Part shown: one piece after another, positions 42,017 through 46,541 of the stretch
How positions within the stretch are numbered: position 1 is the first letter of the stretch
How the letters are laid out: each line of letters begins with the position of its first letter
From: an uncultured Verrucomicrobiae bacterium
Lineage (GTDB): Bacteria; Verrucomicrobiota; Verrucomicrobiia; Limisphaerales; Palsa-1400
Reading direction: 5' to 3'
DNA length: 64,000 nucleotides
Assembly (NCBI GenBank): GCA_963702845.1
Contig: OY969763.1
Location: 4,352,001 to 4,416,000 of the forward strand
Position numbers and translations under genes: made by a program
The notes under the pieces: model-generated
The model's input: the letters and a program-made list of their open reading frames with translations, nothing else
Databases searched by the model: none
Told to the model about the DNA's origin: nothing

Positions 42017-43225
42017 GTGGCCGGCTCAATTGTTCATTCAACCGATACGCGTGTCCTGATTCTCGCTCCAACGGGGCGTGACGCAGAATTGAGTTGTGCA
42101 TTCCTCGAGGACTCAGGAATCAAGGCGCATCCCTGCCGCGATATGTCGGACCTGGCGAATGAAGCCGAACAAGGGTGTGGAGCGATTGTGCTTGCCGAGG
42201 AAACGTTGGGCACAAGTTCAGTGCTGGCGTTCAAAGACCTCCTCTCCAAGCAACCGTTTTGGTCTGACCTTCCCATCACCATTATTGCAACAGGCGGCAG
42301 CGGCAACCGGGACACGTCGCGAAGGCTCTCAATTTTCGGGTCGGTCGGAAATGTCAGCATTCTGGAGCGTCCGTTTCGACCGGAGACTTTGGTCAACGCG
42401 CTGCAAGTGGCACTGCGTTCGCGGCGACGGCAATACGAAGTGCGTGACCTGGTGAAGGCTCTGGGTGAGAGCGAGGGTCGATATCGCGACTTGGCCACCT
42501 CTCTGGAAGCGCAGGTTAAAGCACGAACAGCGGCGCTTCAGGAAACGAATAGAGAACTGGAAGCGTTCACCTACACGATTGCCCACGACCTGCGCGCGCC
42601 GCTTCGAGCGCAGCAAAGCTTTGCCGGGGCGTTGCTAAATGATTTTGGAGATGTTTTGGGTGAGACCGGGCGGGATTACGCGCAACGGATCGGCGATTCG
42701 GCGGTTCGCCTGAACGACTTGCTCCAGGACCTGCTCGCATATTCTCGCCTCAGCCGTGCGGAGATGGAGGTTGAACTGGTGGAGTTGAGACCGCTCGTTT
42801 TCCAAATTCGTGACGAGATGGATTTCCAAATCAAAGAATCCGGGGCCAAGGTCAACGTGCGCGATTTTTCGTTCACTGTGTGCGGCAATGAGGCGATGCT
42901 CAGGCTTGCGATCACGAACCTGCTTTCAAACGCGATCAAATTTTGCCGCCCGGGTGTTCCCGCCGAAATTGATATTTTTGCGGACGAACGCGACGGCTGG
43001 ATTCGGCTCTATGTTCGGGATAACGGAATTGGGATTGACCCGGAGCACCATCAGCAGGTGTTTGGGATTTTCAGTCGATTGCACAGGGCCGGAGAATATC
43101 CCGGGACCGGAGTAGGACTGGCAATTGTGCAGAAAGCAGTCGAGCGGATGGAGGGTCGGGTCGGCGTCGAATCGCAGAAGGGTGAGGGCTGCCGGTTCTG
43201 GATAGAGCTGCGCAAGAGCTGCTGA
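42017..43225 (+). CDS. Sensor histidine kinase with degenerate N-terminal receiver-like domain
   Basis: AHDLRAPL, NLLSNAIKF, DNGIGI, GTGVGLAIV; no TM segments. Confidence 0.92.
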   Translation: MAGSIVHSTDTRVLILAPTGRDAELSCAFLEDSGIKAHPCRDMSDLANEAEQGCGAIVLAEETLGTSSVLAFKDLLSKQPFWSDLPITIIATGGSGNRDTSRRLSIFGSVGNVSILERPFRPETLVNALQVALRSRRRQYEVRDLVKALGESEGRYRDLATSLEAQVKARTAALQETNRELEAFTYTIAHDLRAPLRAQQSFAGALLNDFGDVLGETGRDYAQRIGDSAVRLNDLLQDLLAYSRLSRAEMEVELVELRPLVFQIRDEMDFQIKESGAKVNVRDFSFTVCGNEAMLRLAITNLLSNAIKFCRPGVPAEIDIFADERDGWIRLYVRDNGIGIDPEHHQQVFGIFSRLHRAGEYPGTGVGLAIVQKAVERMEGRVGVESQKGEGCRFWIELRKSC

Positions 43226-43630
43226 TCAAGCGGACACGCGCAAATATTGGACGAGTTCCTGAAACGAAGCTGATTTAACGAAATAGGTCGTGGCGCCAAG
43301 GTTGTAGGCGCGTTTCACATCGTTGGGCATATCTGAGGAGCTGAGGATGATAATCGGCAGCGTTTGCAACTCTGGATTGCCGCGCGCCCACTCCAAAACG
43401 TCGAACCCTGTTTTGCGCGGCATCTTCAGATCAAGGATCAAGACATCAGCCATCGGGAATTGATTGCGGTCGTGATATTTTCCTTTTCCTTGAAGCCATT
43501 CGATGGCGGCCTCACCGTCGTCGACCACATACAACTCGTGCGGCAAGGTCGCGCGGTTCAACGCCATTTTGAAGATGACAACGTCGTTGGGGTCGTCTTC
43601 TGCGTATAATATTTTTTTGCCACGGCTCAT
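43226..43630 (-). CDS. Single-domain response regulator
   Basis: AEDD, LDLKMP, LSSS, YFVK. Confidence 0.9.
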   Translation of the reverse strand: MSRGKKILYAEDDPNDVVIFKMALNRATLPHELYVVDDGEAAIEWLQGKGKYHDRNQFPMADVLILDLKMPRKTGFDVLEWARGNPELQTLPIIILSSSDMPNDVKRAYNLGATTYFVKSASFQELVQYLRVSA

Positions 43631-43770
43631 GTTAAGAATGGACGGTGGAAATGATAGCAATCAGTGACGGCGTGTGAAGACCGATTTTTCCCGCAGTCAA
43701 ATATAGGTGAACGCACGAACCGAGGATGACAATGGCGAGCGGCGATGGTATGAATTGAGCCAGTGACTTC

Positions 43771-44184
43771 ATGACAGCGAATGTATTTCGATATTCAAGC
43801 CGGGTAACGTATGCGCAGTGCACCGTGGGCAATCACATTTATTATGCGCGTTATCTCGATATTCTGGAGGCGGCGCGTGGAGAATTTGCGCGGGAGCTTG
43901 GGATGCCGCTGGGGATGTTGCAAGAGCAGGATACGATTTTTCCGGTGATCGGCGTGGAGATTTCTTACAAGTCGGCCGCGCGCTACGATGAAGTGCTGAC
44001 GACGGAGGTCTGGGTGATGGAGTGTGGTGGTGTGCGGGTGAATTTCGGAGCGAGGATTTTGAAGGAGGATGGGACGGTGGTTGTCGAGGCAGTGACAAAA
44101 CACGTTTGCACGACGCGGGATGAGAAACCGAAGAGGTTGCCGAAGGAGATTTTGGAGCGGCTCGAAACGCGAAAGCAGGTTTAA
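43771..44184 (+). CDS. Acyl-CoA thioesterase (4HBT/YbgC family)
   Basis: HIYYARYLDILEAAR, YKSAARYDE hot-dog fold pattern. Confidence 0.85.
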   Translation: MTANVFRYSSRVTYAQCTVGNHIYYARYLDILEAARGEFARELGMPLGMLQEQDTIFPVIGVEISYKSAARYDEVLTTEVWVMECGGVRVNFGARILKEDGTVVVEAVTKHVCTTRDEKPKRLPKEILERLETRKQV

Positions 44185-44185
44185 C

Positions 44186-44199
44186 GATATGCCGCCCCT
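44186..44199. repeat. Left half of an interrupted REP-like palindrome (target left flank + CT core)
   Basis: GATATGCCGCCCCT joins ACGGGG at 45397 to give GCCCC-TAC-GGGGT, paralleling the intact unit GATGTCGCGCC-TAC-GGCGC downstream. Confidence 0.8.
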
Positions 44200-44249
44200 T
44201 GTATGTCTCCTTTTGCCATTTCTTGTAGCTTTAATCAGTGAATAGGAAA

Positions 44250-44440
44250 CTGGCACTACGTTCCGGCCTGCAGGCCGGAATGTAGCGGCGCAGGCGTGAT
44301 CGTTCGCCCCTTGGTCTCCCGATTGGGAAGCCCGTCCCGTAGCAGGATCCGCCTGTGCTTTTGCTCCGAACTCGAACCGTTGTTTGAGCGGCAATCCTTG
44401 AACGCTGCCTGCTCGTATATGCAAGAATGAGTCAGAACAT
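44250..44440 (+). ncRNA. Bridge RNA of the IS110 element (ends approximate)
   Basis: 5' hairpin 44256-44285; target-binding loop 44288-44358; donor-binding loop ~44365-44436; four guide segments match target and donor. Confidence 0.85.
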
Positions 44441-44447
44441 TGCCATT

Positions 44448-45386
44448 ATGAACCATATCCCTGCCGTCGTCTATTGTGGCCTGGACGTTTCCAAAGCCTC
44501 TCTCCAACTGGACTTCAACCACCGGATTCACGAGGATCCAAACACCGCGCCCGGCCACAAAACATTAGTTAAGCGGCTGGCTTCAGCGCCTGGCATTCAT
44601 GTTATCTGTGAAGCCACGGGTGGCTACGAACGCGCCATCGTCGCTGCACTGCAAGAGGCAAACATTCCAGTCTCTGTCCTCAATCCTGCACGCGTCCGCC
44701 ACTTCGCACGGGCACAAGGCAGGTTGGCCAAAACGGATCCCATTGATACCACTGTTCTGACCGCTTACGGAACAGCCTTCAAACCCGCCTCCACCCCTGC
44801 GGCCAGCGCCTCTCAAAAACGATTGGCAGAATTGAGCGCCCGTCGTGCTCAACTCATCGATTTGATCGTCATCGAGAAGAATCGAGCTCCGATGCATTTG
44901 CTTCCCGAAGTTGGAAAATTGGCCCGACAACTACTGCGTCAATTGGAGGCTCAAATCAAACACATCGATAAACTGCTGGCGCATCTTCTCAAAGAAGACG
45001 GCGTTCTAGCGGACCGTGCTCAACGTTTGGATGCTATCGCGGGAGTCGGCCTCCATACTGCGGTTATGGTGCTGGCTGAAATGCCAGAACTAGGCACCCT
45101 CAACCGCCGCCAGGCAGCGGCATTGGCTGGGCTGGCTCCAATCAATCGTGATAGCGGTACCTGGAATGGTCCCCGTTCGATTGGCGGCGGTCGCGCCAGT
45201 ACCCGCAGAACTCTTTACATGGCCGCATTAACTGCCAGTCAATATAACAGACACCTAAAGCTCTTTTATCAACGGCTCAAAGACGCCGGCAAACCATCGA
45301 AAGTGGCCCTAACGGCTGTCATGAGAAAGTTGATCATCCTGATGAACCAAATCTTAAAAAACCCAAACTTCATCCTTGCCAGTTAA
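44448..45386 (+). CDS. IS110-family recombinase/transposase
   Basis: DEDD residues in GLDVSK, CEATGGYE, KTDPID; IAGVG HhH; GLAP...DSG serine motif; ATG 44448 preferred because 44427 lies inside the RNA fold. Confidence 0.96.
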   Translation: MNHIPAVVYCGLDVSKASLQLDFNHRIHEDPNTAPGHKTLVKRLASAPGIHVICEATGGYERAIVAALQEANIPVSVLNPARVRHFARAQGRLAKTDPIDTTVLTAYGTAFKPASTPAASASQKRLAELSARRAQLIDLIVIEKNRAPMHLLPEVGKLARQLLRQLEAQIKHIDKLLAHLLKEDGVLADRAQRLDAIAGVGLHTAVMVLAEMPELGTLNRRQAAALAGLAPINRDSGTWNGPRSIGGGRASTRRTLYMAALTASQYNRHLKLFYQRLKDAGKPSKVALTAVMRKLIILMNQILKNPNFILAS

Positions 45387-45396
45387 CACCGTTGCT

Positions 45397-45438
45397 ACGG
45401 GGTCTGCGATGCTACAAAGATGTCGCGCCTACGGCGCT
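45397..45438. repeat. Right half of the interrupted REP-like unit plus a second intact unit
   Basis: ACGGGGT...GCTACAAAGATGTCGCGCCTACGGCGCT; GTAG on the minus strand; lies between convergent genes. Confidence 0.75.
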
Positions 45439-45440
45439 GT

Positions 45441-46394
45441 CTAACCGAGAGCGGCGAATTGTTCGCGGCCTTCCATCAGATAGTCCAAATAATAGGACAG
45501 GCGCATTTTCATGTCGCCGCGTGGCACGATGGCGTCGATGACGCCGTGTTCCAAAAGAAATTCCGCGGTTTGGAAACCGGGCGGCAGTTCCGCCTGAGTG
45601 GTGTCTTTGATGACACGCGGACCGGCGAAGCCGATCATCGCGCCGGGTTCGGCGATGATTAAATCACCAACGCTGGCATAACTTGCCATAACGCCGGCAT
45701 AGGTTGGATCGGTCAACACACTGATGTAGGGCAACCGGGCCTTCGCGTGATATGCGAGTGCGCCGCAGGTTTTCGCCATTTGCATCAGACTGAACATGCC
45801 TTCATACATGCGTGCGCCGCCGCTGGTGGAAAAAATAATTACGGGCAAACCTTTATCGGTGGCCGCTTCTATCATGCGCGTCAATTTTTCGCCGACGACT
45901 GAGCCCATCGAACCGCCGAGAAATCCAAAATCCATCACGCCAAGGCCGATACGGTGTTTGCCGATGCGACCAATGCCAGTGCAGACGGCGTCCTTGAGGC
46001 TGGTGCTCTTTTTGTAGGCCTCAAGCTTAGCAGTGTAGGGCGCGACGCCGGTGAACTTGAGCATGTCCACGGCTTCCATTTCGGCGTCCATTTCTTCGAA
46101 TGAACATGTTTCGACGAGGGCGTGGATGCGTTCGCGCGCGGCGATTGTGAAATGGTAATTGCACTTGGGACAGACCTTAAGGTGCTCGTCGAGCTCCTTG
46201 TCGTAAATCATGCTGGCGCACTTTTTGCACTTCGTCCACAGGCCTTCGGGAATGTCCCGCTTTTTGGCCTTGGAAGTGGTCAGCTTCGGTTTTTTGACGA
46301 ACTGAGTCGCAGCGGCATCTGTATGCGGCGTGAGTGCTGGGTCGACCGTCTCGAGTCCGAGGGTCTTCTTGTTAGTAAACGAAGATGTGGCCAT
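45441..46394 (-). CDS. accD: Acetyl-CoA carboxylase carboxyltransferase beta subunit
   Basis: GLWTKCKKC...VCPKC zinc finger, GGSMGSVVGEK, SGGARMYEG, FAGPRVI. Confidence 0.97.
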   Translation of the reverse strand: MATSSFTNKKTLGLETVDPALTPHTDAAATQFVKKPKLTTSKAKKRDIPEGLWTKCKKCASMIYDKELDEHLKVCPKCNYHFTIAARERIHALVETCSFEEMDAEMEAVDMLKFTGVAPYTAKLEAYKKSTSLKDAVCTGIGRIGKHRIGLGVMDFGFLGGSMGSVVGEKLTRMIEAATDKGLPVIIFSTSGGARMYEGMFSLMQMAKTCGALAYHAKARLPYISVLTDPTYAGVMASYASVGDLIIAEPGAMIGFAGPRVIKDTTQAELPPGFQTAEFLLEHGVIDAIVPRGDMKMRLSYYLDYLMEGREQFAALG

Positions 46395-46541
46395 GTATGA
46401 TTTTAGACCTGCTGCGACTGCTACTGCAAAGTTAGGCGTTGGTAGCATAATGCATTACGGCGCAAACTCCACCTCTGCGTTTTAAACTTTTTGCAGAAGG
46501 CGTCAATAGCGGAAATTTGACGGCAGTTAAGCGCCACACGT

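Follow-up and report, generated by a model that had tools for sequence, protein, structure and literature searches.

This locus raises the question of where exactly an apparent insertion sequence begins and ends, and what sets those ends. The window, by which we mean the whole stretch of 64,000 nucleotides that was analysed, carries the element between a thioesterase gene (43771-44184, +) and a convergent accD gene (45441-46448, -), in + orientation and 14 nt beyond the thioesterase stop codon. Further upstream lie a histidine-kinase-like ORF (42017-43225, +) and a receiver-domain-like ORF (43226-43660, -), recognised from their translations only. The host genome is one contig of 6.03 Mb, in which no second copy of the element was found by DNA or protein search. 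Due to this single-copy state, the ends had to be defined without a check against sister copies. Instead, the crossover at CT in the window is placed by covariation between guide segments and flanking DNA, which is independent of any sister copy. Taken as a whole, mechanism included, the data are very probably best explained by 44200-45396 being an intact, single-copy IS110-group element of the IS621-like, bridge-RNA kind.

An earlier note on this DNA had read the left junction as GCCGCCC-CT-TGTAT at 44191-44204 and the right junction as ACCGTTG-CT-ACGGG at 45388-45401, and both are correct to the base. The parts of the two junctions are as follows.

44191..44197 (+), left target half (LT), GCCGCCC; guide pairing backs 44193-44197 (CGCCC) only
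44198..44199 (+), left copy of the CT core dinucleotide, assignable to target or element
44200..44204 (+), right donor half (RD), TGTAT, at the left end of the element; CTTGTAT stands unchanged in all 26 aligned left ends
44200..45396 (+), IS110-family element, 1197 bp with one CT counted; the span can equally be given as 44198-45394
45388..45394 (+), left donor half (LD), ACCGTTG, at the right end of the element; the guide segment LDG has the same 7 nt
45395..45396 (+), right copy of the CT core
45397..45401 (+), right target half (RT), ACGGG; the guide segment RTG, reverse-complemented, reads CTACGGG, 7/7

As the bases beside the two CT copies differ (C and G before, T and A after), exactly 2 bp are common to both junctions. 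A repeat search of 44150-45450 returned nine inverted and ten direct pairs, none of which links the two ends. Terminal inverted repeats and any longer duplication are therefore absent, in agreement with what had been claimed from the letters.

The coding part of the element identifies its family.

44427..45386 (+), transposase/recombinase ORF, 319 aa

The N-terminal DEDD (RuvC-like) domain is present (PF01548 at 2.2e-19, residues 18-158), as is the C-terminal Tnp domain with its catalytic serine (PF02371 at 4e-16, residues 199-282), and the protein passes the NCBIfam model NF033542 'IS110 family RNA-guided transposase' with 189.6 bits against a cut-off of 140. The best solved relatives found with phmmer are ISCro4 (9t56, 1.5e-34) and IS621 (8wt6, 2.1e-34). 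In the phmmer alignment to 8wt6_A, residues D20, E62, D104, D107 and S243, the last within the motif RDSG, stand opposite IS621 D11, E60, D102, D105 and S241, the catalytic residues listed for IS621 (PMC11208158); our numbers count from the ATG at 44427, and an offset of +2 applies to the chain numbering of 8wt6_A. The set of five IS621 catalytic residues is thus conserved in full, which bears out the earlier reading that the DEDD residues and the DSG serine are intact. The ATG at 44427 falls within the donor loop of the bridge RNA described below (GAGUC stem arm, 44429-44433). In several relatives this upstream ATG is replaced (AAG in L034, AGG in L055), and L069, L088, L094 and L105 have GGAG-type words in its place with a later ATG after. 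Since 44427-44433 lies inside the bridge RNA and the upstream ATG is absent from several relatives, the true start of the ORF may be the ATG at 44448.

Relatives were collected by a scan of one genome per species, in which 560 were confirmed; of these, the best 80 were retained, representing 79 distinct loci. These are mostly in Verrucomicrobiota, Limisphaerales or Pedosphaera records, and the closest shares 63% protein identity. We see the strict right-end word AC[AC]CCG[TC]TG[CT]T, followed by unrelated sequence, at 31 of the 79 loci from these best 80 of 560, among which is one locus (L097) where the word is not at the right end. A relaxed form of the word is present in 13 of the 17 left-end-bearing loci that lack the strict one, and CTTGTA lies 155-190 nt ahead of the conserved LDG word at 37 loci, the window included. 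For the left-end alignment, 26 of 28 distinct ends were used; L094 and L105 were dropped because their 5' parts were too divergent. Two copies in one relative genome (L005 and L019) agree from CT-TGTAT to ...GTTG-CT, and their flanks are common only up to ...GGCGTCC-CT and from CT-ACCT, so that outside the element only the target words are shared. Together, the invariant CTTGTAT, the right-end words and the agreement between L005 and L019 point to CT ends as a property of the whole family. The claim that the element ends at a CT core therefore stands: ...AACACCGTTG-CT and CT-TGTAT are kept in the relatives with divergence beyond them, and the guides of the window element match its own flanks and ends.

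These guides belong to an IS621-type bridge RNA encoded in the 5' non-coding end of the element, from 44200 to about 44433. The single-sequence fold of the left end gave z = -4.55, and RNAalifold on the 26 aligned sequences predicted 42 pairs, 29 of them with compensatory changes. Rfam cmscan of 43500-46000 returned no match at E up to 1. The parts of the RNA are as follows.

44256..44285 (+), bridge-RNA 5' stem-loop, a 15-bp palindromic hairpin (alignment columns 62-95, many compensatory changes)
44287..44359 (+), target-binding loop, with basal stem 44287-44301 paired to 44346-44359 (columns 96-110 with 161-174, compensatory changes)
44303..44311 (+), guide segment LTG
44313..44332 (+), distal stem-loop of the target loop
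44336..44342 (+), guide segment RTG
44343..44344 (+), handshake dinucleotide CA
44370..44433 (+), donor-binding loop, with ACUCG (44370-44374) paired to GAGUC (44429-44433)
44376..44383 (+), guide segment LDG, ACCGUUGU
44386..44414 (+), distal stem-loop of the donor loop
44417..44425 (+), guide segment RDG, AU-AU-GCAAG
44426..44427 (+), AA following RDG

The donor loop was drawn from alignment columns 203-233, with columns 1-5 paired to 241-245, after the scheme published for IS621 (PMC11208158). In the guide scheme of the same paper, the bottom strand of each left half is the pairing partner of LTG or LDG, and the top strand of each right half that of RTG or RDG. The target loop here carries CGCCCCU, which equals the left flank plus CT, and CCCGUAG, which equals the reverse complement of CT plus the right flank. 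LTG (TTCGCCCCT) matches LT plus core (GCCGCCCCT) at 7/9 positions, its positions 1-2 having no match to the flank, and RTG (CCCGTAG in DNA letters) is the exact complement of CTACGGG, 7/7. Of the 14-bp target that had been proposed, guide pairing thus backs the 12 bp CGCCC-CT-ACGGG, while the first two bases have no match in LTG.

In the donor loop, LDG and RDG match the two ends of the element. LDG (ACCGTTGT) is set against the donor ACCGTTGC, with a U at the position of the core C that would give a G-U pair with the bottom strand. RDG (AT-AT-GCAAG) is set against CTTGTAT with G opposite T12 and two extra bases. For the donor guides the evidence is complementarity and not covariation, the donor being almost invariant within the clade. 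The bases after the guides can be compared with the 'handshake', a term and scheme taken from PMC11208158: the CA after RTG in the target loop complements donor positions 7-6 (G, T), while the AA after RDG in the donor loop has no complement in target positions 7-6 (C, C).

For the target guides, covariation across the relatives can be counted. Cognate LT/LTG pairs match at 4.54 of 7 non-core bases (28 unique pairs), compared to 2.29 for non-cognate pairs (736 pairs), and cognate RT/RTG pairs at 4.17 of 5 non-core bases (23 unique pairs), compared to 1.46 (484 pairs). These counts retain the low scorers L069 and L088, which are misaligned by one column, and L094 and L105. It might be argued that the match of flanks and guides is a coincidence or a by-product of a GC-rich repeat, with the real ends elsewhere, since the target is low-complexity and GC-rich (CGCCCCT, CCCGTAG) and LTG matches only 7/9. 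However, in relatives with quite different targets it is again these two columns of the alignment that follow the flanks; CTGCGTT, CTGAAGG, CTGGGCT and CTTCGGA are examples, each matched 7/7 by its own RTG, and non-cognate pairings are near random. We regard coincidence as extremely improbable. In the window, LTG at 7/9 and RTG at 7/7 exceed chance when set against the low scores of non-cognate pairs among the relatives. In short, the bridge-RNA reading places the crossover at CT from target-side data.

We then turn to the site into which the element was inserted. Joined with one CT, the flanks read ...ATATGCCGCCCCTACGGGG..., in which a CCCC-TAC-GGGG hairpin is followed by a second hairpin.

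45412..45439 (+), second hairpin of the REP-like unit (CTACAAAGATGTCGCGCCTACGGCGCTG)

The landing site was ...ATATGCCGCCC-CT-ACGGGG..., within hairpin 1 of a two-hairpin REP-like repeat. The same two-hairpin unit stands uninterrupted in the relative genome G016. The 19-mer that results from fusing the flanks at a single CT is present there as well, and in more than 121 metagenome contigs; among the 45 contexts examined in these, CTACAAAGATG.CGC.CCTACGG.GC often comes some 20-25 nt later. The second-hairpin word was found in at least 13 of 40 relative genomes. As a repeat, the unit can be written as ATATGCCGCCCCTACGGGGCT, about 10-25 nt, then CTACAAAGATG.CGC.CCTACGG.GC; its sites include the window (44186-44199 plus 45397-45439), L140, L145, L151, L173 and others. 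It is widespread in relatives and metagenome contigs and almost a singleton in this genome. Tandem 19-mers at a spacing of about 50 nt, forming arrays of hairpin units, are seen in the metagenome contigs L183 (3 copies), L153, L213, L204 and L202.

The same hairpin offers a different view of the extent of the element. Its two halves, CCCC and GGGG, flank the insertion as complementary sequences and could be mistaken for short inverted termini, in which case the true element would be larger and include the REP-like hairpins; it could then be a composite unit, for instance, or resemble IS1111 in having subterminal repeats and a guide RNA at its 3' end. We consider this highly improbable. Conservation among the relatives ends exactly at CT on both sides and the flanks vary by locus; the hairpin stands uninterrupted, without any IS, in the more than 121 contigs mentioned above; no subterminal inverted repeats were found in 44150-45450; and the right end lies 10 nt past the stop codon, which leaves no 3' non-coding region for a seekRNA. 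The element is therefore taken to end at CT, with the hairpins as target DNA.

Two expectations about the abundance of targets were rejected. Relatives are not full of exact targets, as the 12-mer gave 22 matches in 16 of 40 relatives compared to 75 for a backwards control, and the REP-like unit is not abundant in the host genome, where exact motif variants number 1-5 and short blast matches at most about 15. The host genome has no other copy of the 11- to 14-mer target, and the 10-mer GCCCCTACGG occurs only three times. One perfect target, now occupied, fits with a single copy of the element. In both congeners (accD 84-85% identical) the thioesterase-accD synteny is kept and the element is absent. 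An empty site at base level was not found in these congeners, as the spacers are unrelated (G002) or much shorter (G001), and none of 80 metagenome loci bearing the 19-mer has the flanking genes of the window.

Based on the anatomy of the locus, a mechanism of the IS621 type can be proposed. Transcription of the 5' non-coding end would yield a bridge RNA made up of a 5' hairpin and two internal loops. In the target loop, LTG (left flank plus CT) would pair with the bottom strand and RTG (the complement of CT plus the right flank) with the top strand, and the donor loop would do likewise for the joined ends of the element, ACCGTTG-CT-TGTAT. A tetramer of the DEDD/serine recombinase, guided by the RNA, would exchange strands at the CT common to donor and target, and such an exchange would give insertion without any duplication other than CT.

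How the RNA would be expressed can be considered for two states. In the integrated left end, no sigma-70-like promoter was found on the + strand; transcription by read-through from the thioesterase gene, which runs in the same direction 14 nt upstream, is possible. In a putative circular intermediate the ends would be joined, and a hexamer in the right end may then come into play.

45376..45381 (+), TTGCCA, a candidate -35-like hexamer in the right end

With the ends joined, TTGCCA would stand 17 nt from TATGTC (44202-44207), a -10-like hexamer that is partly formed by RD and lacks the final T. Among 24 distinct relatives, TTGNNN at the 17-nt spacing is seen in 11, TAT in 22 and the final T in 11. 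A junction promoter TTGCCA-17 nt-TATGTC, formed after circularisation, is plausible but weak. For IS621, weak bRNA expression from the integrated element has been described, along with excision that is less efficient than insertion (PMC13626964). A 2026 preprint argues for single-strand, copy-type excision and disputes cut-and-paste for IS621; the earlier statement that excision gives the empty target assumes that disputed mode. Neither a circle junction nor a true empty allele was seen; that the element may be active, as the note had suggested, is inferred.

The opposite case, of the same anatomy in a stranded or decaying copy that is no longer mobile, is possible, though we think it the less likely condition. 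It fits with the single-copy state of the element, with a genome that holds no further 11- to 14-mer target and so few 10-mers, with the weak -10-like hexamer and the lack of a promoter found in the integrated state, and with the misfit of the donor-loop handshake bases to the target. In the contigs of four runs (X1-X4, all Logan contigs) that were compared with the element, no joint was seen and none bridged either end, although contigs of this sort could not have revealed a joint. On the other hand, the recombinase gene is not truncated and retains the five catalytic residues, no RNA helix is broken and all four guides fit their DNA partners. There is also evidence from outside this genome. 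In the soil metagenome run X2, a 603-nt contig aligns to 44199-44801, the left part of the element, at 97% identity, which indicates that close variants exist elsewhere. Its left end differs at 11 positions, none of them in guide segments, and the differences at 44276 and 44281 preserve pairs of the 5' hairpin; this fits a family under selection. The contig stops exactly at 44199 without a loose end, a weak hint at most. Among the sequencing runs searched, none held half or more of the query words, the best share being 0.23.

Several consequences follow from the bridge-RNA reading. An exact annotation becomes possible, covering the ends of the element, its core, bridge RNA and four guide segments, and a natural 12-bp target and 14-bp donor. 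The related loci, with one donor in common and many different target loops, amount to a modest natural collection of 'reprogrammed' bridge RNAs in a phylum other than the well-studied Proteobacteria. In addition, a widespread two-hairpin REP-like repeat is flagged as a landing site.

We also offer a broader reading, tentatively and as something we would not bet on, in which the right donor is fixed by a factor other than RNA pairing and REP-like hairpins serve as landing pads by structure as well as sequence. Between the Verrucomicrobiota clade and E. coli IS621, the recombinases are distantly alike and both targets and left donors differ, while the right donor word is the same in the published IS621 sequences. 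Since CT-TGTAT and the bulged RDG are both kept between the clade and IS621, the right donor may be constrained beyond RNA pairing; candidates would be a second role as the -10 element of a junction promoter, or direct contacts with the protein. In the window, the target lies at the loop edge of a repeated hairpin that is spread through many environmental metagenome contigs; such hairpins may act as landing pads, and if this is true, REP-like hairpins would be IS110 landing sites well beyond Proteobacteria. Literature word searches on the repeat motifs gave only primer matches in unrelated contexts, and no paper treating IS110, REP and Verrucomicrobia together was found among the matches listed.

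Finally, the element can be compared to known systems. IS1111 members have a non-coding region after the transposase gene. In the window element, the non-coding region lies ahead of the gene and only 10 nt separate the stop codon (45384-45386) from the element end (45396). The IS1111 group (seekRNA) is described as having subterminal inverted repeats (Siddiquee et al. 2024, PMC11187229), and the window element has none. A DEDD transposase and RNA-guided site choice are common to both (PMC11187229), but on the grounds of the missing repeats and the short 3' end, membership of the IS1111 group was rejected.

Closer parallels in target choice are ISPpu9 and ISPpu10 of Pseudomonas putida, IS110-family elements for which REP or stem-loop targets are described (PMC12288879; 10.64898/2026.03.19.712850). 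Like these, the window element is an IS110-family insertion into repetitive extragenic palindromes, with target DNA that can form a stem-loop. Compared by description, the two differ in that the stem-loop of ISPpu10 is a 5' extension of its target (10.64898/2026.03.19.712850), whereas in the window the CT core lies at the junction of 5' stem arm and loop (CCCC-TAC-GGGG) and insertion splits the hairpin. Among the relatives, genome G012 carries related IS at two or more sites (L005, L019 and L053). Insertions there lie directly after a hairpin with a 10-bp stem (GGACGCCTCG..CGAGGCGTCC) at ...GTCC-CT-ACCT, and resemble the 5' stem-loop target described for ISPpu10 (10.64898/2026.03.19.712850).

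The nearest system as a whole is IS621, for which donor and target are used as printed in papers and not from a genome record. Its wild-type target is given as ATCAGGCCTAC (PMC11208160) and its donor as ACAGTAT-CT-TGTAT, the dDNA oligo containing ACAGTATCTTGTAT (PMC13396178); pairs to dC8, dG11, dT12, dA13 and dT14 are described, and in its RDG A157-U158 is followed by flipped-out U159-U160, G161 with dT12, and C162-G165 (PMC11208158). The comparison with IS621 made in the note, of a CT core followed by TGTAT in the donor, agrees with this oligo and these pairs. Its further suggestion, of a conserved donor with a diverged target, is right for the core and the right donor half TGTAT, which are the same, and for the target, which differs apart from CCTACG; it does not extend to the left donor half, where ACCGTTG and ACAGTAT are identical at 4/7 positions.

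The window element is not an isoform of IS621. When the complete element was compared with 20,395 E. coli records by blastn at its 'distant' setting, no match was returned, and the protein is only distantly similar (phmmer 2.1e-34). The window target is CGCCC-CT-ACGGG compared to ATCAGGC-CT-AC, LTG pairs over 7 nt compared to 9, U stands in LDG in place of the core C, the handshake bases of the donor loop misfit the target, and the window element is single-copy in a host from Verrucomicrobiota while IS621 is from E. coli. The two have the same domain pair and the same D-E-D-D plus Ser catalytic set, and a guide RNA at the left end with 5' hairpin, target loop and donor loop (PMC11208160, PMC11208158). 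In both, LTG and LDG read as the top strand and RTG and RDG are complementary to it, the CT core and the right donor TGTAT are identical, RDG has a two-base bulge with G opposite T12, the handshake bases of the target loop are complementary to donor positions 7-6, and the target is a REP-type repeat containing CCTACG (PMC11208160). We see no new principle beyond those set out in Durrant et al. 2024 (PMC11208160) and Hiraizumi et al. 2024 (PMC11208158), and the element of the window is a canonical bridge-RNA element of the IS110 group, an addition to a kind already known.
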